IMG/VR virus record: IMGVR_UViG_3300031963_000864
Location: 1-25,327 of that record
Source of the DNA: a virus
Taxonomy: Duplodnaviria > Caudoviricetes
Direction: 5' to 3' (one strand)
DNA: 25,327 nucleotides
Shown here: one piece after another, positions 3,384-23,726 of the stretch
Position numbering within the stretch: position 1 is the stretch's first letter
Layout of the letters: each line of letters begins with the position of its first letter
Notes under the pieces: generated by a model
Seen by the model: only the letters and a program-made list of their open reading frames with translations
What the model was told of the DNA's origin: nothing
Databases searched by the model: none
Made by a program: the position numbers and the translations under genes

Positions 3384-4016
3384 ATGCCATATAGCCGTGG
3401 TACGTCAAACAACATTATCGTTGGTGCAGCAGCACTTTTCGTTGCAGATACTACCCTTACACCAGGCACACTAGAGTCTTTTGATTCCAGTGAGTCTTTT
3501 AAGGATACTCTGACAGCAGATGCAGCGTACACTAACGTAGGTTATACCATGAACGGTTTAGAATTACAATTCCAACCAGACTTCGGTGAAGTCCAGGTAG
3601 ATCAAATTCTTGACGTTGCAAAACTATATAAGCAAGGTATGCAAGTTAATCTTGCTACCGCTTTTGCTGAAGCAACCCTAGAAAACTTGCTTCTTGCATT
3701 AGCATTCTCTGATGCACAACTTACAGGAAACAAGGCAGCATCTACAGGTCAGACACTTAATCTATCTGCAGGTGAACTTGGAGAATGTCCAGTAGAACGA
3801 GGAATCGTTGCTGTTGGACCAGGAACTGGAGATTGCGACAACTCTGACTCTGTTGAGCGTGTCTACACAGCATATCGTGCTCTATCAATTGAGAACGTAA
3901 CTGTATCCGCAAAGCGTGACGAAGCGTCAATGTTTGAAGTTTCATTCCGTCTTCTACCAGAAGATGCGTCAGGATCATATGGAAAGATCGTAGATCGTAC
4001 ATTTGGTCAATCATAA
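3384..4016 (+). CDS. Major tail (tube) protein
   Basis: 210 aa. NIIVGAAALF, VGYTMNGLELQFQPDFGEVQVDQ and AEATLENL are typical of siphovirus tail tube proteins. Strong SD, downstream terminator, and position before the chaperones and tape measure gene. Confidence 0.85.
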   Translation: MPYSRGTSNNIIVGAAALFVADTTLTPGTLESFDSSESFKDTLTADAAYTNVGYTMNGLELQFQPDFGEVQVDQILDVAKLYKQGMQVNLATAFAEATLENLLLALAFSDAQLTGNKAASTGQTLNLSAGELGECPVERGIVAVGPGTGDCDNSDSVERVYTAYRALSIENVTVSAKRDEASMFEVSFRLLPEDASGSYGKIVDRTFGQS

Positions 4017-4030
4017 TCTAACTTTAGATT

Positions 4031-4071
4031 AAAACAAAGGCCCACCTTTTATTAGGTGGGTTTTTTGTTTT
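4031..4071 (+). terminator. Rho-independent terminator, probably bidirectional
   Basis: AAAACAAAGG-CCCACCT (4041-4047), loop TTTATT, AGGTGGG (4054-4060), then TTTTTTGTTTT. Confidence 0.9.
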
Positions 4072-4076
4072 GCCTA

Positions 4077-4085
4077 TGATAGAAT
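4077..4085 (+). promoter_or_regulatory. Extended -10 motif TGATAGAAT
   Basis: Lies immediately after the terminator and 9 nt before ATG 4095; no SD and no -35. Confidence 0.55.
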
Positions 4086-4094
4086 AGATAAATC

Positions 4095-4790
4095 ATGGCA
4101 ACAACCGTTTATCAAAATAAAATAATAAAACTTATTGATGGCACAGAACTAGAGATTATGCCACTAAAAATAAAATATCTACGTGAGTTTATGGAAGCAT
4201 TTGAATATGTTAAAAAAGCCAAAAATGATGATGAGGCCGTAGATTATTTAATAGAATGTGTAAGAATTACAATGAAGCAATACTATCCAGAAATAATATT
4301 AACAAAATCTGATATAGAGGATAGTCTTGATATGCCAACAATATATACAATTTTAGATATTTCGGCGGGAATTAAAATAAATGAAAAGTCAAGTCAGACA
4401 GTTAAAAACCAAGCAGAGGATAGTGGTGCCACATGGTCAGACTTGGATTTAGCAAAAATTGAGGCTGAGGTATTTCTAATAGGTATTTGGAAAGATTACA
4501 AAGAGTTAGAAGAATCACTATCTATGCCAGAACTTATGGCAACCCTTTCTAGTCGTAGAGAACTTGACTATGAAGAAAAAAAGTTTCTTGCTGCAATTCA
4601 AGGGGTAGACTTAGATAAACAGTCTGGATCTTCAAGGGGTCAAAAAGAATGGGAAGACATGAAAGCCAGGGTATTTAGTAAAGGTAAAACAAGTGATAGT
4701 AAAGACATATTGGCTCTTCAAGGTCAAAATGCCAAGAGTGCAGGGTTTGGTATTGGCATGGGCTTAGAGTACGAAGATTTAACAAAATAA
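4095..4790 (+). CDS. Tail assembly chaperone, long form (in-frame GT-like fusion)
   Basis: 231 aa between the tail tube and tape measure genes. The first ~100 aa are paralogous to the next gene; the ~130-aa C-terminal extension occupies the place of the T moiety. Confidence 0.75.
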   Translation: MATTVYQNKIIKLIDGTELEIMPLKIKYLREFMEAFEYVKKAKNDDEAVDYLIECVRITMKQYYPEIILTKSDIEDSLDMPTIYTILDISAGIKINEKSSQTVKNQAEDSGATWSDLDLAKIEAEVFLIGIWKDYKELEESLSMPELMATLSSRRELDYEEKKFLAAIQGVDLDKQSGSSRGQKEWEDMKARVFSKGKTSDSKDILALQGQNAKSAGFGIGMGLEYEDLTK

Positions 4791-4814
4791 TACAATAAAA
4801 AATTAGCACCTCCG

Positions 4815-4823
4815 TGCTATAAT
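4815..4823 (+). promoter_or_regulatory. Extended -10 promoter motif TGCTATAAT
   Basis: Perfect TGnTATAAT in a 57-nt gap; strong SD AGGAGG at 4837-4842. Confidence 0.7.
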
Positions 4824-4847
4824 TGACATAACCTATAGGAGGAAATA

Positions 4848-5177
4848 ATGGCAACAACTACGTATGAGGAAAATACTCTTACATTGATTGATGGCACAAA
4901 GGTTACAGTACGTCCTCTAAAAATCTCTCTACTTCGTCCGTTTATGAAGAAGTTTGAGGGTGTGGGAGCAGTGGCGGAAGATAACGGGAAATCTATGGAC
5001 ATTCTTATGGAATGTGTACAGATTGCAATGAAACAATACAAGCCAGAACTCTCTGAAGACGTAAAGAAACTAGAGGAGAATATTGATCTCCCAACTGTTT
5101 ACAAGATCGTAGAAGCAGCATCAGGTATTAAACTTGCTGAAGTTTCAGACGTTCTTGGCGTAACTATGGCTGAATAA
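4848..5177 (+). CDS. Tail assembly chaperone, short form (G-like)
   Basis: 109 aa, the size and position of a gpG-like chaperone; ends 22 nt before the tape measure start; strong SD. Confidence 0.75.
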   Translation: MATTTYEENTLTLIDGTKVTVRPLKISLLRPFMKKFEGVGAVAEDNGKSMDILMECVQIAMKQYKPELSEDVKKLEENIDLPTVYKIVEAASGIKLAEVSDVLGVTMAE

Positions 5178-5199
5178 TTTAAAAGAGGTGTGAAACTAA

Positions 5200-8100
5200 A
5201 TGGCTGATGTTAATGCTAATATTGACATTAATATTGATTCGTCTAATGCATTAGCACAGTTAAAAGCATTACAACGTCAGATATCACAGTTTCACACCTC
5301 AATAGCCAAATCAAGTGAAGCAGCAGCCCTTGCTCAAAGAGGCTTACAGAAAAATCTTTTAAATAGTATTAACGCTATCGGTTCATTTACTGCCGAAATG
5401 CGTACAGTTAAAACATCTGCAGAATCATTTACCGACTCATTAGAAAAAAATAAATTTTCAATGCGGGAATACTTCCGCTATGCGGGAGCATCTACAAAAA
5501 CATTTGGTAGATTATTTAGGTCAGAGTTTGACACAATTGGCAAGGTAGCCGAAGAACGTGTAAAAAGACTACAAACACAATATATTAAGATGGGCCGTGA
5601 TACTAACGGTGCAATGAAAGCAATGGCTGTTATGCCAACTCAGTTGAACATGGATGATTATACAACTAGAGTTCAAATAGCAGCACAGAAGCAGGCATTA
5701 TTTAATCAATTAATGAAGCAGGGTTCCACCAATCTTTTAAATTTTGGTAAGAATACACAATGGGCTGGTCGTCAGTTAATGGTTGGTTTTACATTACCAT
5801 TGATGGCAGTAGGCACAGCAGCAACCAAAACATTTATGGACATGGAAGCACAGGCACTTAGATTTAGAAAAGTTTATGGAGACTTATTTACACCACAGGC
5901 AGAAACACAGGCAGCACTAGATAATATTACAGAATTAGGAAAGCAGTTTACAAAGTATGGCGTAGCAGTTTCTACTACTGTTGGATTAGCAGCAGAGGCT
6001 GCAGCAGCAGGCTTCCAAGGACTAGATTTACAACGTCAAACAACAGAAGCAACACGACTTTCTATTCTTGGTCAAGTTGATAGTCAAAAAGCACTTGAAA
6101 CAACTATTTCTTTACAAAATGCCTTTGGTATGTCATCTGACAGACTTGCAGATTCTATTAACTTTTTAAACGCAGTAGAAAACCAAACAGTTGTATCTCT
6201 TGATGATATCACTACTGCTATTCCAAAGGTAGCACCAGTTATTCAACAATTGGGTGGAGATGTAAAAGACTTAACATTCTTTATGGCTGCTATGAAAGAA
6301 GGCGGTATTAATGCATCAGAAGGCGCTAACGCATTAAAGTCAGGTCTTGCAGCATTAATTAATCCAACTGAAAAAGCATCAGACATGCTTGCAAGGTTCG
6401 GTATTAATGCAACTGCAATTGTTGAAAAAAATAAAGGAAATTTAAAAGCAACAGTTGTAGAATTTGCAAATGCTTTAAATGCTTTAGATCCACTTTCTAG
6501 AGCAAGAGCAATTGAACAAATGTTTGGTAAGTTTCAATTTGCTCGTTTGTCAACATTGTTTGCTAACGTAGCCAGAGATGGAAACCAGGCTGCCCGTGTT
6601 CTTGATTTAGCAAATGCCTCAGTAGAAGAACTATCTGCTCTGTCTGAGCAAGAATTAGGCATGACAGCAGACTCTGCAATGAATAAATTTAGAAAAACAG
6701 TTGAAGACTTAAAGGTTTCCCTTATACCAGTTGGCAAGGCATTTTTAGAAGCAGTAACACCAATTGTAGAATTTGTTGGAAATATATTAGAAAAATTTTC
6801 TAATCTTTCAGATGGAACTAAAAGACTTATTACTTTACTAACAGTAGGTATTGGAGCAGTAGGCCCTGTCCTTCTTATGACATTTGGTTTGCTTGCAAAC
6901 GGTATAGCAAATATCATTAAACTATTTTTAACATTACGTGGCGGGTATCAAAGATTAACTGGTCAAACACAAATACTTGGAGAGCAAACCCAGTATATGA
7001 CAAGTGAGCAGTTAGATGCAGCAGCAGCAGCCCATTCTCTTAATCAAACACACGCTACACTAACTCAAACCTTTACAGCAGAAACGGCACAAATCACTAA
7101 ACTTATTGCAGCATATAACTCTGCAGCAGGAGCAGCAAGAAACTTTGCAATGAATAATCCTGGAATGATGATGCCAGGAAGAGGTGCTAGAAAATTAGCA
7201 AGTGGTATTGTTTCAGTTCCTGGACCAAAAGGAGCAGGGGATATAGTTCCAGCAATGCTATCTCCAGGAGAATCAGTTATTCCAGCAGACATGACAAAGA
7301 AATATGCTCCACTAATTCAAGGAATGATTGCAGACAATATTCCTGGATATCAAAAAGGAAGAAGTTTAGGAACAGCGGTTGATGTTCCAGGTGGAATGGA
7401 TGTATCACACTTTGGAACAAAAAGTTCTAGAACTGGTGCAGAACTATTTTCAATGGTTGAAGGACTAGAAACATCCGCTGCTAGAAATATTAGAAAAATG
7501 GTTGCGTCTTTTGAAAATGGATTAACTAGAGTATTCACAACTTTTGACAATCAGGTGGTTGCACAGTTTACTGAAATAAATAGATTAATGCAAACACAAG
7601 GAAAAGCAAGCACACAAAAAGTTAAACAAAATTTAGTTGGTGCAGGATTTGCTGAAACACGAGACATAGAGTTACAAAGACAATTAGTACAGTCTGGAAC
7701 ATCTATTGATGAATTTAAATTAATAAATAAACAAATAACAGATGAAATTATTATAGGTTTTGATGCTTTAGGAGATAAAACAGAAATTACCTCTGAAGAA
7801 CTAAATAATCTTTTAAGAAAGGCTTATGAAGAAGTAGCAAAAACAGATGCTCGTGTTGAAAAAGCATACAACAACATGAAGCAGGTCTCAAGTGTCTTTA
7901 GTCCAGATAGAGCAGGAGTTAGAGGATCAAGAATTCCAATAACAGAAGAATCTTATATCAAACAAAAAAAGAGTACGCAAAGAACTCCAAGTCAATATAG
8001 AAAAATGCAAGGGCAGATGGTTGGTGCTGAAAACATTCCATATGCACAATCTAGTAGATTTGTTGTTACAAATAGTATTGCTAAAGAATTAGACCTCAGC

Positions 8101-11100
8101 AGTAAACAAGCAGCAGATATATATAACAAGATGTCTGCAGATGCTAAAGTAACTTTGTCAAGAATGAGAAATGACCTTACAGCATTTAAAAAAGAATTTA
8201 TTATAGAAGCAGCCAAAGTTGGAGAGATGGTTGGTACATCAGCAGTTAACGCAACTGCCAAGGCAGCAGGAACTGCATCAGCATCAAGAAAAACAAGAAG
8301 AATTGGCGAAGATGTTGGTCGTGGTCTTGAAGAAGGAATGAAGAGCAGGCAAGACGACGTTGCTTTAGTTGGATCTCAATTAGGAAATGCTGCAATAGGT
8401 GGAGTTAAAGGCGCAGTCCCACCAGTTACATTTCAATCAGCAGGACAACCAGGATTCGTAGCAGCAAATGCACCAAAACCAGGTGTTCCAATGTCTGTTT
8501 TAAATGCAGCGTATGAAGAAGATGCTATGAGAGATTTAATGAAAAAACAACAACAAAAAATAGCAATTACTAATCAAAGAATGAATTCATTAAATAAAGC
8601 ATTTATGAGTGGCACATTTGCACTATCTGCTTTATCTGGTGTTGCTTCAATGGCTGGCGGAAACCTAGGAAAATTCTCTCAAATAATATTTACTTTAACT
8701 GGTCCATTATTTGCTTTATCGTCAATACTTCAATTGCTAACTGGATCAAAAATATTACAAATTATTTCAAATTTTGGTAAACTTAAATTTGGACTTATTT
8801 CTGTTGGCATAACCGCACTAGTTACTGGATTTTCAATGTATAGAAAATCACAAGAAGAAACAAGAAGAAAACTTTTATCATTTAAAGATGCATTAACAAT
8901 AACCGAAAAACAAGCAAAAGCCACTGCTGATTATTTTGGAGTTGTTCGTAAAAAGGGTGCTTTAGAAACTGGCTCTAGAGCAACTGCAGCAACAGCAAAG
9001 ACTCCAAATTTTAGAGATAAGGTTAATCAGTTTATAGATTCTGACGAGTTTAAGAATAATTATGAAAGTAGTATAAAAAGTTTAAGTGAACAAACAGACA
9101 ATGCAGCAAGAACAGCATTATTTATTAGAGCACAAGAATTATTGGCTACAGGTTATTCTGAAGAACAAATAAATATTATTATTTCAGCACTTCAGCAACA
9201 AGCAGGAAAGCAAAATTTAAATTTATTATTTAAAGATATCAAAATTGACGCTTTGAATAAAAATATTATGGATGGCCTAAAAGAACAATTGGCTGATTTA
9301 GGAAAATTTGCTGAAAGTAAAAGGTTTAGAAAAATAATTACAGAAGTGTTTAATCCCGACACTCAAAAATTTGATCAAATTATATCAGTTGTTCCATTAA
9401 AAGGTTTTCAGACAGCAGTTGACAATGTTGCAGCAGGAATTAATTCATTTTTAAAGAGTGTTACATTATTAAGAGAAAATGGAAAAATAAGTGTACAAGA
9501 CGTAGAAAAATCATATAACTCATTAATGTATACAATTAATACCAGCACACCAGATTCACGAGTTAAAATTGCTTTATTAAATAGCGCATTAAAAGACTTA
9601 AAAGATCCTGTTGCAATTGCAGCAATGCAAACTGAAAATTTAGCCAAAAAGACAAAATTATTAGAGGCTGCAATGTTTGGTGCAATAATTCCTGTAGAGT
9701 TACTTAATGAATATTTAAGAACAGATAGTGGAAACCCCAACCTATATGCTTCAGGACAAACAGAAGCAAGAATAAATGCTTTAATTGAGGCTGCTAAAAA
9801 ATCAACAAAGGCAGTTTATGACGCAGTAAAGGCTAGCGAAGCAGCAGCCGCTGCTGATGGAAAAACAAATCCATTAAAAGAAAGAATTAAAGCAATTCAA
9901 AATCAAACTAAGGCATATATTATATTACGTAATGCAAAAGTTGATGAGGCAACTGCAACAGAATTAGCAAATGATGCAGAAATAGCATCTCTTGTTATTG
10001 CAAATAGTAAAGGTAAATCGTTAACACAAATTATTGCATTAATTAACGAATATAAAGCAGCAATCAAGGGACAAACTGATGCTGAATTAAAATATATGGA
10101 AAAGCCAAATTTGTTTAAAAAGCAATTGGAGCAGTATCAAGCACAGGCAGAACTTAGAGAAAAATTAATTGATGTTCAGTTTGCATCAAGAATAAAGGCA
10201 GAAAATGATGCTTTAAAGGTTCAAGAACAAAATTTGCAAAACGTAAATAATGAAATTCAAAAAATTACAGATTCTCAAATTAAACCAATTCAGGCTGTTA
10301 TTGATGCAAATAACTTTGCTCTTGAATCAATATCTTTACAAGAAGATGCAATTAATGAAAAATATAATACACAAATAGAATCTTTAGATAAAATTGCAAC
10401 CCTTAATCAAAATATTGCAAATATTCAAAAACAAAGACTTTCTATTGCTGATGCACTTACTCGTGGAGATATATCTGCTGCTGCACAACTTGCTCAAGAA
10501 GCAAGAGCAGAAAATGCAGCCTCTGCTGTAACTGGACAAAAAGAGGCTTTAACTATTACTCGTGATGCTCAAATAAAAGCACTTGGAAGAGTTGAAATTG
10601 AAAAGCAAAATAAAAAACTTCAATTAGAAATTAATACAATTGAAAGAGGATCATTACTAACCTTACAACAAAAGAAAGACACAATTGAAAGCACTATTGA
10701 TTCAATTAATAGAAACATTCAAGCATTAAATTCTCAAGTTGATGCATTAAAAAATGGCGCTTACTATGCTGGACAAACCAGAACAGAGATAGATAGTCTT
10801 GCTGGACTTATTGATGCAGCAGAAAAAGCAGGCATTCCATTTAGCAATCAACTTTTAAGTCAAGCAGGATCTGCTGCAGCACTTGCAAAATCACTTTCAG
10901 ATGCTGTTACCGCTCAAAAGTCTTTAGCCTCATTATCAGGTCTTGTGTCTGGAGCAGGACCTGGCACAGGAACTGGCACAGGAACTGGCACAGTCACTGG
11001 TACAGGTGCGGGATCAACCGTCACTGTAAAGTCTGGTAATACATTAAGTGGAATTGCAAAGGCAGCAGGAGTTAGCCTTTCAGATGTAATTAAAGCCAAT

Positions 11101-11550
11101 CCACAAATTACTAATCCTAATTTAATTAAACCAGGACAAATAATTAAAATACCAGGAAAAATGTATGGTGGCAAAATTAAGTCAATGAACATGGGTGGAA
11201 TGGTTCCTAAATACCTTGCTCGTGGTGGTGGTATAGGTTCTGATACCGTGCCAGCAATGCTTACTCCTGGAGAGTTTGTAATGAATAGAAGAGCAACTGA
11301 GCAATTTGGTCCATTGCTATCAATGTTAAACGAGTCAAAATATCCATCAATGATTGGTAACAGGGTTGGTGCACAAGTTCCAGTTAATAATGTTTCAACA
11401 TCTATGAGCGATAACTCAACGGCAGTGTATAATTATAACTTAGGCTTTAATATTAGTGGAACTAACTCAAATCCAAATGATATTGCTAGAGCAGTAATGA
11501 GAGAAATTAAAAATGTTGACTCACAAAGAATTAGGGGGCAAAGAGTATAA
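5200..11550 (+). CDS. Tape measure protein with C-terminal LysM domain
   Basis: 2116 aa, Ala/Gln/Lys-rich and helical. It has a TP901-like core (..GGINASEGANALKSGL..AIEQMFGK), hydrophobic stretches, two D.VPAML[ST]PGE motifs and a LysM at about aa 1940-1985. SD GAGGTG at 5185-5190. Confidence 0.93.
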   Translation: MADVNANIDINIDSSNALAQLKALQRQISQFHTSIAKSSEAAALAQRGLQKNLLNSINAIGSFTAEMRTVKTSAESFTDSLEKNKFSMREYFRYAGASTKTFGRLFRSEFDTIGKVAEERVKRLQTQYIKMGRDTNGAMKAMAVMPTQLNMDDYTTRVQIAAQKQALFNQLMKQGSTNLLNFGKNTQWAGRQLMVGFTLPLMAVGTAATKTFMDMEAQALRFRKVYGDLFTPQAETQAALDNITELGKQFTKYGVAVSTTVGLAAEAAAAGFQGLDLQRQTTEATRLSILGQVDSQKALETTISLQNAFGMSSDRLADSINFLNAVENQTVVSLDDITTAIPKVAPVIQQLGGDVKDLTFFMAAMKEGGINASEGANALKSGLAALINPTEKASDMLARFGINATAIVEKNKGNLKATVVEFANALNALDPLSRARAIEQMFGKFQFARLSTLFANVARDGNQAARVLDLANASVEELSALSEQELGMTADSAMNKFRKTVEDLKVSLIPVGKAFLEAVTPIVEFVGNILEKFSNLSDGTKRLITLLTVGIGAVGPVLLMTFGLLANGIANIIKLFLTLRGGYQRLTGQTQILGEQTQYMTSEQLDAAAAAHSLNQTHATLTQTFTAETAQITKLIAAYNSAAGAARNFAMNNPGMMMPGRGARKLASGIVSVPGPKGAGDIVPAMLSPGESVIPADMTKKYAPLIQGMIADNIPGYQKGRSLGTAVDVPGGMDVSHFGTKSSRTGAELFSMVEGLETSAARNIRKMVASFENGLTRVFTTFDNQVVAQFTEINRLMQTQGKASTQKVKQNLVGAGFAETRDIELQRQLVQSGTSIDEFKLINKQITDEIIIGFDALGDKTEITSEELNNLLRKAYEEVAKTDARVEKAYNNMKQVSSVFSPDRAGVRGSRIPITEESYIKQKKSTQRTPSQYRKMQGQMVGAENIPYAQSSRFVVTNSIAKELDLSSKQAADIYNKMSADAKVTLSRMRNDLTAFKKEFIIEAAKVGEMVGTSAVNATAKAAGTASASRKTRRIGEDVGRGLEEGMKSRQDDVALVGSQLGNAAIGGVKGAVPPVTFQSAGQPGFVAANAPKPGVPMSVLNAAYEEDAMRDLMKKQQQKIAITNQRMNSLNKAFMSGTFALSALSGVASMAGGNLGKFSQIIFTLTGPLFALSSILQLLTGSKILQIISNFGKLKFGLISVGITALVTGFSMYRKSQEETRRKLLSFKDALTITEKQAKATADYFGVVRKKGALETGSRATAATAKTPNFRDKVNQFIDSDEFKNNYESSIKSLSEQTDNAARTALFIRAQELLATGYSEEQINIIISALQQQAGKQNLNLLFKDIKIDALNKNIMDGLKEQLADLGKFAESKRFRKIITEVFNPDTQKFDQIISVVPLKGFQTAVDNVAAGINSFLKSVTLLRENGKISVQDVEKSYNSLMYTINTSTPDSRVKIALLNSALKDLKDPVAIAAMQTENLAKKTKLLEAAMFGAIIPVELLNEYLRTDSGNPNLYASGQTEARINALIEAAKKSTKAVYDAVKASEAAAAADGKTNPLKERIKAIQNQTKAYIILRNAKVDEATATELANDAEIASLVIANSKGKSLTQIIALINEYKAAIKGQTDAELKYMEKPNLFKKQLEQYQAQAELREKLIDVQFASRIKAENDALKVQEQNLQNVNNEIQKITDSQIKPIQAVIDANNFALESISLQEDAINEKYNTQIESLDKIATLNQNIANIQKQRLSIADALTRGDISAAAQLAQEARAENAASAVTGQKEALTITRDAQIKALGRVEIEKQNKKLQLEINTIERGSLLTLQQKKDTIESTIDSINRNIQALNSQVDALKNGAYYAGQTRTEIDSLAGLIDAAEKAGIPFSNQLLSQAGSAAALAKSLSDAVTAQKSLASLSGLVSGAGPGTGTGTGTGTVTGTGAGSTVTVKSGNTLSGIAKAAGVSLSDVIKANPQITNPNLIKPGQIIKIPGKMYGGKIKSMNMGGMVPKYLARGGGIGSDTVPAMLTPGEFVMNRRATEQFGPLLSMLNESKYPSMIGNRVGAQVPVNNVSTSMSDNSTAVYNYNLGFNISGTNSNPNDIARAVMREIKNVDSQRIRGQRV
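10961..11008 (+). repeat. 12-bp tandem repeat encoding a Gly-Thr linker
   Basis: CTGGCACAGGAA twice exactly, then two degenerate copies (CTGGCACAGTCA, CTGGTACAGGTG); encodes PGTGTGTGTGTVTGTGA. Confidence 0.85.
11017..11154 (+). other. LysM peptidoglycan-binding domain within the tape measure protein
   Basis: TVTVKSGNTLSGIAKAAGVSLSDVIKANPQITNPNLIKPGQIIKIP matches the LysM consensus (yTVk.GDTL..IA...gvs...l...N....p..I.pGq.l.iP). Confidence 0.92.
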
Positions 11551-20556: not shown

Positions 20557-20864
20557 TGGCTGAACGCAAAGACCGAATGGCTTTGCTAAGTAGATATAAC
20601 AAACTACATCTACAAAAGTACGAAGCCAAAAGCAACATGAATCTCAATGTTGAGCAATGGGCTGCAGATGCACTTGTTGAATCTTATGGAATAGGAATAT
20701 GTTATGACTTATTGGATTATTATTTTAATATTGCTTCTTCCCCTTCTTGGAATTACTTTGCATACAATGCGGAAAAAATATTGGAAGCAAAATTAGAAGT
20801 AGAACAAGATATTAAAGAAAGACAGGAAAGAAGAAAATTAGCAAGAAGGTGGATTAGTGAATAA
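20556..20864 (+). CDS. Hypothetical protein upstream of the helicase
   Basis: 102 aa, TAATG-coupled upstream and overlapping the helicase start; helical and aromatic-rich. Confidence 0.6.
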   Translation: MAERKDRMALLSRYNKLHLQKYEAKSNMNLNVEQWAADALVESYGIGICYDLLDYYFNIASSPSWNYFAYNAEKILEAKLEVEQDIKERQERRKLARRWISE

Positions 20865-22080
20865 TACAGAAGCAAAATTAATTAGTGCCGTATTAAATGA
20901 TAAACAAATTCATGTTTTGCTGCAAGCCAACATTGACAATCTTTTAAGAACTCACAATGATGTATGGAATTTTATTAGATTGTATTCAGAAAACAACCAA
21001 TCAGTTCCACCAGCATCTTTGGTAGTAGAAAAATTTAGAGATTTTGTTCCAGTAGATGGCGTTGGAGCAACAAAGCATCACCTTGAAGAACTACAAGCAG
21101 AATATTTAAATGATAGCCTAAAAGATATTTTGCGTAATGCAGCATCTGAAGTTCAGGTTGGCAATGGCTCAAATGCTCTTGAACATTTAATTACAAAAAC
21201 ATCAGAGTTAAAAAAGAATACTGCTGCAATTAGAGATATTGAAGTTACGGATTTAGAGTCAGCAGTTGCATATTTTGAAAATGTAAAGAAAATGCAAGAT
21301 CTTGGACATATTGGTATTAAGACAGGTTTACCAGGATTTGATAACTATTTACCTTCTGGAATTATGCCAGGACAACTTGGTGTGTTCTTAGCATACCCAG
21401 GTATTGGTAAATCTTGGCTAGCATTATATTTCGCAGTACAAGCATGGAAACAAGGTCGCAGTCCACTTGTTATAAGTCTTGAAATGTCTGAAACGGAAGT
21501 TCGTAATCGTGTATTTGCAATTATGGGTGAAGGCTTATGGTCTCACCGCAAACTTAGCAATGGAGAAGTAGAAATTGATATGCTTAAAAAATGGCATGCT
21601 GAAAAGTTAGCGGGTAAACCAGAATTTCACATCATCTCAAATGATAATGGCGGAGATGTAACTCCATCTGTTATACGTGGAAAAATTGATCAATATAGAC
21701 CAGACTTTGTTATCGTAGACTATTTACAACTTATGTCTCCAAACCAAAAATCTGATAATGAAACAGTACGTATGAAAAACTTATCTCGTGAACTTAAATT
21801 AATGTCAATTAGTGAAGAGGTTCCTATTATTGCTATTTCTTCTGCTACGCCTGATGATGTTAAAGATCTTTCTACACCGCCAACTTTAGGACAAACTGCA
21901 TGGTCTAGACAAATTGCTTATGATGCTGATTGGGTAATGGCACTTGGTCGTGCTACGAATAGTGATATTATTGAATGTGTATTTAGAAAAAATAGAAATG
22001 GTTTTATGGGAGACTTTTTAGTTCAAGTAGACTTTGATAGAGGATATTATAGATATAAAGACTATGAGGATAAAGCATGA
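20857..22080 (+). CDS. dnaB: DnaB-like (SF4) replicative helicase
   Basis: 407 aa, GTG start. IKTGLPGFD, Walker A AYPGIGKS, H1a SLEM, Walker B IVDYLQLM, LSRELK, YDAD and KNRNG are present. Confidence 0.95.
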   Translation: MNNTEAKLISAVLNDKQIHVLLQANIDNLLRTHNDVWNFIRLYSENNQSVPPASLVVEKFRDFVPVDGVGATKHHLEELQAEYLNDSLKDILRNAASEVQVGNGSNALEHLITKTSELKKNTAAIRDIEVTDLESAVAYFENVKKMQDLGHIGIKTGLPGFDNYLPSGIMPGQLGVFLAYPGIGKSWLALYFAVQAWKQGRSPLVISLEMSETEVRNRVFAIMGEGLWSHRKLSNGEVEIDMLKKWHAEKLAGKPEFHIISNDNGGDVTPSVIRGKIDQYRPDFVIVDYLQLMSPNQKSDNETVRMKNLSRELKLMSISEEVPIIAISSATPDDVKDLSTPPTLGQTAWSRQIAYDADWVMALGRATNSDIIECVFRKNRNGFMGDFLVQVDFDRGYYRYKDYEDKA

Positions 22081-22802
22081 AAAATAAAAAAATTATTTTT
22101 GAAGCATCAAGCCAACATTCAGAAATTTTATTAAGTCCACCAACTCCTGCAACTAATGTTGTGCCTGAATGGTTTAAAAAACAAAAAAATTACTCAAATG
22201 ATGAAAACAATATATTAAAAGCACATAAAAAAAGAAATAATTTTAGTACATATAAAATGTGTGTTCCAATAACAGACAGCATAACTAGTGGATATATGAT
22301 GTTAAGCCCAGCAGATATACTTATAGAAAATGTTGGAAATGAAACACACTATGTTCCATATATTAACTGGAAAACAACTTTTGAAGTTGTTGATTTGCAG
22401 CCACCAGAGGCAGTTGCAAACTATCCAATACCAGTAGGATTTAGTTCGGAATCTTTTAGATGGATGAATGATTGGAAAGTAACAACTCCAAATGGATATA
22501 GTTTATTTATTACACATCCATTACATAGACATGATTTGCCATTTTTTACATTAAGTGCAATAGTTGATGCAGACAAACACCCTAATAAATTGTTATTGCC
22601 ATTTTTTGTTAAAAAGGGTTTTGAAGGTATAATTCAAGAAGGAACTCCAATTGCACAAATTATGCCTTTTAAAAGAAATAATTGGAAATCAGAAAAAAAA
22701 TCATTTAAAAATGAAACAACTATATTTTATGATAATTTTATTAAATTAAATTTTGCAAGAACTTATAAAAATAAAATTTGGACTAGAAAAAAGTATACGT
22801 AA
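22077..22802 (+). CDS. Hypothetical protein, dUTPase-fold-like (possibly DUF6065-related), paralog 1
   Basis: 241 aa, AT-rich. Motifs PEWFK, KMCVP..D..SGY, TPNGYS, HPLHR.DLPF, SAIVDAD and EGTPIAQIMPFKR are shared with 24419..25162. Confidence 0.6.
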   Translation: MKNKKIIFEASSQHSEILLSPPTPATNVVPEWFKKQKNYSNDENNILKAHKKRNNFSTYKMCVPITDSITSGYMMLSPADILIENVGNETHYVPYINWKTTFEVVDLQPPEAVANYPIPVGFSSESFRWMNDWKVTTPNGYSLFITHPLHRHDLPFFTLSAIVDADKHPNKLLLPFFVKKGFEGIIQEGTPIAQIMPFKRNNWKSEKKSFKNETTIFYDNFIKLNFARTYKNKIWTRKKYT

Positions 22803-23726
22803 ATGATTAAAGATTCATATACAGCAGAACAAGTTAAACGTATCTTAACTGGCTCTGGTATTGATATTGAAGCAGAGTACGGAACTGATTATATTATTTT
22901 TTGTCCGTATCACAATAATAATAGAACTCCTGCTGGAGAAGTGTCAAAAGATCACGGAATGTTTTTTTGTTTTGGATGTCAAACCACAAAAACTTTAATT
23001 GAATTTGTAATGTATACATCAAATAGAACATACTTTGAAGCAGTTAGATATATTAAAAGCAAAGAACAAGAAACAAGTATTGAAGAATCTATTAACAAAA
23101 CATTAATAAATAAACCAGAGTTTATTCAATATGACGAGTTATTAATTAAAAGATTAAATAATCAAGCATTAGAATCTCCTAGGGCAATTAGATATTTTGA
23201 AGGAAGAAAAATCACTAAAGACTCAATAGATAAATTTAGTCTTGGATATTCTGAAAAGCAGGATTCTGTAACTATTCCAATTCATTCTCCAGACGGAATG
23301 TGCATAGGGTTTGTTGCTAGAACTGTTGAAGGCAAAGAATTTAAAAATACACCAGGCTTGCCAAAAGGAAAGATTCTTTTTAATTTACATAGAATTAAGA
23401 CGTCAAATATTGTTTATGTAGTAGAATCATCTTTTGATGCAATAAGATTGGATCAAGTAGGTTTCCCTGCCGTTGCTACGTTGGGGGCTAATGTTTCTGC
23501 AGCACAGATAAGACTATTAGAAAAATATTTTAATAGTATTGTTTTAATTGCAGATAACGATGATGCAGGAGTAATCATGAGAGACAAGTTGATTGAAAAA
23601 CTTGGACCCATTGTTACTTCTGTTTATATAGATAAAAAATATAAAGATATAGGCGATATGGATGATGAGGCAATTAAAAAATTGGAGTTTCAGTTTGACA
23701 ATTCTATCATCGGCATGTTAAAATAG
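22803..23726 (+). CDS. dnaG: DnaG-like DNA primase
   Basis: 307 aa with a CHC2 Zn finger (CPYH...CFGC), GFVAR, and TOPRIM motifs VVES.FDA, VATLG and IADNDDAG, plus KDIGD. Confidence 0.93.
   Translation: MIKDSYTAEQVKRILTGSGIDIEAEYGTDYIIFCPYHNNNRTPAGEVSKDHGMFFCFGCQTTKTLIEFVMYTSNRTYFEAVRYIKSKEQETSIEESINKTLINKPEFIQYDELLIKRLNNQALESPRAIRYFEGRKITKDSIDKFSLGYSEKQDSVTIPIHSPDGMCIGFVARTVEGKEFKNTPGLPKGKILFNLHRIKTSNIVYVVESSFDAIRLDQVGFPAVATLGANVSAAQIRLLEKYFNSIVLIADNDDAGVIMRDKLIEKLGPIVTSVYIDKKYKDIGDMDDEAIKKLEFQFDNSIIGMLK
23695..23724 (+). promoter_or_regulatory. Sigma70/sigmaA promoter TTGACA-N18-TAAAAT with extended TG, inside the primase 3' end
   Basis: TTGACA 23695-23700, TG 23716-23717, TAAAAT 23719-23724; SD AAGGAG lies upstream of ATG 23756. 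Confidence 0.7.

Follow-up and report, generated by a model that had tools for sequence, protein, structure and literature searches.

The window, by which we mean the whole stretch of DNA analysed here (25,327 nt), is a 25.3-kb virus record fragment, about 23% complete. A gene for the major tail (tube) protein lies on its plus strand (3384..4016; 210 aa), with matches to phrog_2175 (E 4e-34) and to phrog_885, major tail protein (E 0.015); the product is ~45% identical to annotated major tail proteins that occupy the same position in Streptomyces phages. An intrinsic-terminator-like hairpin (4036-4065) with a T run follows (4036..4075 in all, plus strand), and after it an extended -10-like box (TGATAGAAT; 4077..4085, plus strand) that ends 9 nt 5' of the next start codon, with no Shine-Dalgarno (SD) sequence between them; the mRNA made from this box is predicted to be leaderless or near-leaderless. 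The gene that starts there (4095..4790, plus strand; 231 aa) is a fused GT, or TAC-NC, gene, which matches phrog_10504 (aa 1-104) and phrog_10474 (aa 131-222) and encodes a G domain (~aa 1-96), a linker (~97-113) and a T domain (~114-231). Next come a second extended -10-like box (TGCTATAAT; 4815..4823, plus strand), 24 nt 5' of the start that it precedes, the SD sequence AGGAGG read at 4837..4842 (plus strand), and a stand-alone G, or TAC-N, gene (4848..5177, plus strand; 109 aa), which matches phrog_10504 only (E 2e-21) and is 45% identical to the N-domain of GT. The plus-strand tape measure protein gene (5200..11550; 2116 aa; PF10145, E 2e-24) completes the module, with an in-frame TAA at 5197-5199 immediately 5' of its ATG.

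An earlier note, made from the sequence of this DNA, had placed two ORFs of 231 and 109 aa between the tube and tape measure genes and read them as paralogues that replace a programmed frameshift. The coordinates were borne out, and BLASTP finds the first 100 aa of both proteins alike, with 45/100 identities and one gap (E 4e-29), which equals the count made by hand in that note. The DNA traces that it listed, ATGGCAACAAC at 4095 and 4848 and ATTGATGGCACA at 4134 and 4887, are present in the sequence, as is the 22-nt gap between the stop codon of the short gene and the tape measure ATG. Moreover, we found a further repeat of 42 nt and 81% identity between the paralogues (4251/5007). The window's G gene contains no in-phase XXXYYYZ site, as the note had said of the end of this gene.

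An assembly indel could have joined two separate frames into an apparent GT gene, a danger that the earlier note itself had raised. Three public runs supplied contigs that cross the G-T junction gap-free: two of these (4108-4586 and 4126-4565) show 0 differences from the window, and the third (3677-4844) shows 15 substitutions. The best-matching run may be the window's own source sample. No indel is listed inside 4095-4790, as judged from contigs, not raw reads, and the long gene is one open frame. Because contigs from three runs cross the junction with no indel listed, we conclude that the fusion is not an assembly artefact. An in-frame fusion with a second G gene is also kept in 210 loci of the survey described below, and we give an indel, ruled out at contig level, a negligible chance.

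The short and long forms share a homologous N-terminal domain and lie between the tube and tape measure genes, as tail assembly chaperones (TACs) do. AlphaFold models of GT and G (mean pLDDT 69.9 and 65.7) both show a beta-hairpin plus helices. Compared with 48,161 PDB chains, the GT model matched YqbN first (3klu; Z 4.7, rmsd 4.2, 87 aligned) and the HK97 TAC second (2ob9; Z 4.3, rmsd 3.7, 78 aligned); the G model also matched 3klu best (Z 5.8, rmsd 3.4, 82 aligned), with 2ob9 outside its top 50. These Z values of 4.3-5.8 fall below the tool's threshold for trust. YqbN and the HK97 TAC are like the window's G domain in having a beta-hairpin followed by helices, but share only 6-10% identity with it. 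In the available part of PMC9603447 both structures are named as TACs, and similar Z values are given for another TAC. Foldseek on viral models returned chaperones and GT proteins among its top rows (E 5e-4 to 0.11), with a TAC match at E 5e-4 and the N15 GT protein at E 0.11.

Feature leads were of the same kind. Atlas pointed to the gpG (PF06894) and gpT (PF06223) families at 0.88, below the Atlas threshold; for the C-terminal domain the PF06223 lead came from 23% of cluster members. Clear homology of the T domain is confined to the ORF that Streptomyces phages carry in the -1 frame. No Pfam TAC family rose over threshold for the two proteins, for 56 alignment members or for 64 of the 150 listed distant homologues (PF23857 appeared below threshold, with E 0.033, in 2/56 alignment members), and a PDB sequence search with both proteins gave chance matches only. 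The structural check proposed in the earlier note thus came out in part: the best matches are tail assembly chaperones, but their scores are weak. Singly the fold and feature leads are weak; together they are concordant. A chaperone identity for both proteins is indicated by where the genes lie, by annotated homologues and by fold matches that, though weak, rank first.

In phage lambda, a -1 frameshift yields gpG and gpGT at a molar ratio of 30:1, with G binding the tape measure and T binding the tube protein (PMC5009743, available part). The window resembles lambda in placing G/GT between the tube and tape measure genes and in encoding short and long products with homologous N-termini; the leads in the window to lambda gpG and gpT and to N15 GT are the weak ones given above. 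Unlike lambda, the window has two genes with ~45% identical G domains, in the order GT then G and with no slippery site, and promoters and initiation signals are predicted to set its product ratio. Where lambda has T out of frame behind a slippery site, G and T here lie in one frame.

We compared the interval between tube and tape measure genes across 331 loci, drawn from four IMG/VR scans (the best 80 matches of each), Streptomyces phage records and the window, and assigned to classes with HMMs of the tube, G, T and tape measure proteins. With the best 80 taken per scan, the following counts are not frequencies. In 210 loci (150 distinct sequences around T) the GT gene is fused and a separate G gene comes after it; these include 12 that end before the tape measure and one with a broken second G. 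A single G gene with T in the -1 frame occurs in 104 (79 distinct around T), and the other 17 end too early for classing. Among the 331 loci we found no fused GT directly before the tape measure, no out-of-frame T together with a second G, and no intermediate state between the two arrangements. The survey that the earlier note had suggested therefore finds the two-gene arrangement kept in 210 loci, with the reversed order, GT then G, seen both in the window and in its two-gene relatives. The broken copy, at locus L120 (3253-3581), is a stand-alone G gene that a shift of frame by one base interrupts; it occurs in one contig only and probably reflects an error of assembly.

All five long two-gene contigs (three of them at least 90% complete, at 104-110 kb) carry exactly two G domains. 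All five also carry a WhiB gene, which points to actinobacterial hosts for the two-gene phages; the window fragment lacks this gene. The runs with matching contigs come mostly from lake, freshwater or aquatic samples, and others are labelled fungus or marine metagenome. MAG labels of nine genome_contigs loci (five two-gene, four frameshift-type) are taxonomically mixed and were left out of the host assignment.

The frameshifting outgroups expected by the earlier note are present among these loci. All 104 frameshift-type loci have an in-phase slippery heptamer within the G-T overlap: GGGAAAC in 57, CCCAAAT in 21, CCCAAAC in 15, CCCGGAA in 9 and two others. The heptamer is of the XXXYYYZ type in 95/104; the nine CCCGGAA sites were accepted only after this motif had been seen in the loci, and it is described as a common one in the part of PMC10274946 available to us. 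In 45/47 frameshift-type loci the T frame has no start codon before a conserved Trp.

A tblastn search with the 231-aa protein matched 127 phage records, all of Streptomyces phages, in two pieces and at ~40% identity in every row listed. We examined ten such records (loci L161-L170; nine Stanwilliamsviridae and one unclassified). The Stanwilliamsviridae phages, including MulchMansion, BillNye, Sham, Yaboi, Emma1919 and others, carry clear sequence homologues of the window's G, T, tube and tape measure genes, arranged as they are in the window; unlike the window, they have a single G gene with T in the -1 frame, no second copy, and an in-phase CCCAAAT or CCCGGAA. In all ten records the T region lacks a start codon before the conserved Trp. 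Tail assembly chaperones are annotated, with a joined CDS in 3/10; other Stanwilliamsviridae records annotate T as a separate gene that starts 3' of the conserved Trp, which is too late. Judged by its sequence and phase, the CCCAAAT or CCCGGAA heptamer is likely the -1 site in Stanwilliamsviridae, which supports re-annotation of their T ORFs as -1 frameshift extensions.

We counted recoding signals in 77 two-gene representatives that share less than 90% identity. Only 13/77 fused genes have an in-phase heptamer in the 30 codons preceding T, at scattered positions, and the window is not among them; the sole in-phase heptamer in the window's long gene is A-AAA-AAG at codon 162, inside T. Among the short G genes, 8/77 have an in-phase heptamer within their last 25 codons and 0/77 a frame that stays open for 60 codons past the stop; in 77/77 the tape measure frame is already closed before the G stop. 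On the last two counts we rejected a G-tape measure fusion or readthrough.

The fused gene could nevertheless still yield a second product, either truncated and G-like or T-only, by hidden recoding or internal initiation, so that recoding would be reduced and not abolished. Such a product might explain why codon 128 of GT is TTG in 42/77 representatives (background ~10%) and codon 129 is CTG in 37/77 (background ~3%), a skew absent from the frameshifters that possibly marks an internal start of a T-only product, or possibly inheritance. An SD core with a start codon lies near T in 34/77 fused genes, and the A-AAA-AAG at codon 162 of the window is in phase. The window itself, however, has CTA ATA at codons 128-129 (4476-4481) and so lacks the skew, and no heptamer is conserved in the linker. 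Nor was a hairpin behind the skew supported, the divergent sequences showing none that covaries (127/1000 shuffles). As for a dnaX-like truncating slip at codon 162, A-AAA-AAN occurs at the Lys-Lys pair in 28/65 genes against 21.8 expected, not clearly more than codon usage would give. Overall, we consider a hidden second product improbable. The earlier note's 'no recoding' is supported in so far as no conserved signals were found in the 77 representatives.

We next turn to the history of the two-gene phages. They form one clade in a concatenated tube, T and tape-measure tree of 84 rows (SH-aLRT 100) and in the tape-measure tree (SH-aLRT 98), and under a midpoint root this clade is nested among frameshifting lineages that include the Streptomyces Stanwilliamsviridae. 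Four changes are needed on the tube-only tree and two on the T-only tree; one two-gene clade is not rejected by the tube alone (p-AU 0.376). A sparser earlier tree placed one long-branched frameshifter inside the two-gene clade. In G-domain trees, the GT copies form one clade (96; 96/97 in a 61-row tree of about every second row, from which three long branches were left out) and the stand-alone copies form another, weakly (80/0), agreeing with the separate fused and stand-alone clades that the earlier note had predicted.

The stand-alone G is 59% identical to sister frameshifting G proteins and the GT domain 42%, with the same order in 31/31 comparisons; this would be expected had G retained the bulk role of the ancestor while the GT copy drifted. 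Within-group identity is 49% for the GT G-domain and 62% for G, the former evolving faster. The same frameshift-free two-gene system could also have arisen by recombination, with one copy acquired from a related phage. This would fit the best G-domain tree, in which the GT clade joins eight frameshifting rows (96/86) and not the stand-alone G clade, and also the low identity between the paralogues (only ~40% across the survey) and the lack of any intermediate state among the 331 loci. However, the faster rate of the GT G-domain makes long-branch attraction plausible, the 99 alignment columns carry little resolution, and sisterhood of the GT and G domains is not rejected (p-AU 0.45). We favour duplication of G in place from these sequence comparisons, and regard acquisition as unlikely, though the most credible of the alternatives. 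Of the earlier note's claim of paralogues made by gene duplication, the two homologous G copies stand, and duplication in place is more probable than acquisition.

The two genes differ in their start signals across the clade. For GT we counted 76 upstream regions, one of the 77 loci having no upstream DNA. An SD core precedes GT in 0/76, an extended -10-like box lies 5-9 nt before the ATG in 71/76, and 2/76 offer another start in the same frame that has an SD core. A hairpin of -10 kcal/mol or lower occurs in 76/76 tube-GT gaps and in 4/76 GT-G gaps, though the latter gaps are shorter. All 77 G genes are preceded by an SD core and, 23-42 nt from the start, by a -10-like box, which reads exactly TATAAT in 76 of them; the G start was picked by best SD, which makes the SD count partly circular, and coincides with the conserved N-terminus. 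G genes of the frameshifters resemble the short G gene: 40/47 have an SD, and in 44/47 a -10 box lies 22-43 nt before the start. The plus-strand motif TG.TA[TG]AAT occurs at three sites in the whole window, two of which precede the GT and G genes. A sigma-70 scan of the window detected neither -10 box, because the scan requires a -35 element.

In the part of PMC3160421 available to us, TANNNT ~12 bp before the start is given as a mark of leaderless genes, which are common in Actinobacteria. The corresponding distance is 12 in the relatives' 6-nt group and 15 in the window, where the 9-nt spacing of the box implies a leader of 2-3 nt and not a strictly leaderless mRNA. Because no SD core precedes GT in any of the 76 upstream regions and 71 of them have the close -10 box, the fused gene is likely leaderless or near-leaderless. 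On the assumption that leaderless initiation yields the rarer product, the GT and G start signals probably set the G:GT ratio. In four metatranscriptome runs, contigs covered the tube and G genes but not GT. This pattern fits low GT expression, yet we do not count it as evidence, since contigs give no ranking of genes and GT is the faster to diverge. Insertions of ~650-720 nt separate the GT and G genes in loci L135 (3196-3978) and L341 (~1250-1880). The L135 insertion contains an ORF with what we take to be a methyltransferase-like glycine motif, and the G gene there retains its own -10 box and SD. The two genes are separable, since an insertion between them leaves G with its own start signals.

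The conservation of these signals also bears on whether the 109-aa paralogue has acquired a new role, leaving GT alone to act as the chaperone. The function of G is predicted only, and its fold matches are weak, which leaves some room for such a change. Yet of the two copies G lies nearer the ancestral G in 31/31 comparisons; it also keeps the ancestral promoter-SD layout, stays beside the tape measure gene, and is present with every fused gene whose locus reaches the tape measure. We consider a new role quite improbable, a little more so than a hidden second product.

Our main reading, to which we assign a probability of roughly 0.8, is that an in-frame GT gene and a separate G gene likely supply a rare long and an abundant short chaperone without frameshifting, at a ratio likely set by their start signals. 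The ancestor would have frameshifted; G would then have been duplicated once, and the upstream copy would have become permanently in frame with T. This copy would have lost its SD leader and be left with a -10 box, degenerate in most cases, from which would come a leaderless or near-leaderless mRNA and little protein. In the downstream copy, the ancestral -10 and SD layout would persist, with a consensus TATAAT; being read from the upstream promoter as well, this copy would give much protein. By analogy to lambda, G may coat the tape measure protein while T may recruit tube subunits.

The chaperone genes of phage T4 are genes 26 and 51. Some T4-like phages have one short TAC gene and one fused long gene, according to the available part of PMC10274946, which cites Vladimirov, Gautam and Davidson (2022). 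By that description the window is like the T4-like type in having separate short and fused long genes in place of a frameshift; unlike T4-like phages, it belongs to a lineage allied to Streptomyces phages, with close frameshifting sisters. Its adjacent genes, their position directly before the tape measure gene, and the contrast between leaderless and SD-led starts are features to set beside the T4-like type. Because the two-gene clade is nested within frameshifting lineages, an origin separate from that of the T4-type system is likely. The earlier note had left open whether the arrangement was already described: a two-gene solution has been reported for T4-like phages, but a description of this lineage's system was not found in the literature covered, in which subscription papers were few. 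The T4-like phages are thus a precedent for the principle, which limits its surprise, and the system found here is a variant in an unrelated lineage.

Few recoding events are as widely conserved in tailed phages as the G/GT frameshift. Natural cases of its loss offer the best place to ask whether what matters is the frameshift itself or only the product ratio, and here the states before and after are found in alignable relatives, including culturable Streptomyces phages. We lean slightly toward a broader interpretation, in which a large clade of freshwater actinobacterial phages independently dropped the G/GT frameshift once and rebuilt the essential skewed ratio from initiation signals alone, the rare fused chaperone being translated from a leaderless mRNA and the abundant one expressed through a consensus promoter and strong SD. 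The clade and its sisters would then form a natural experiment in which selection keeps the ratio and not co-translational linkage, and would illustrate how stoichiometry can be tuned by replacing SD-led with leaderless initiation.

Finally, a perfect 13-nt inverted repeat (5185-5197 / 5288-5300) flanks the start of the tape measure gene, and could act as a sequestering element for its ribosome binding site. The repeat is present in 10/77 two-gene representatives; as a conserved element, a 13-nt complement to the tape measure SD region was rejected, occurring in only 1/37 divergent loci. The tape measure protein itself contains a LysM domain (aa 1942-1985) behind a Gly-Thr repeat, and genes for a DnaB-like helicase and a DnaG-like primase follow the tail module (20857-23726).
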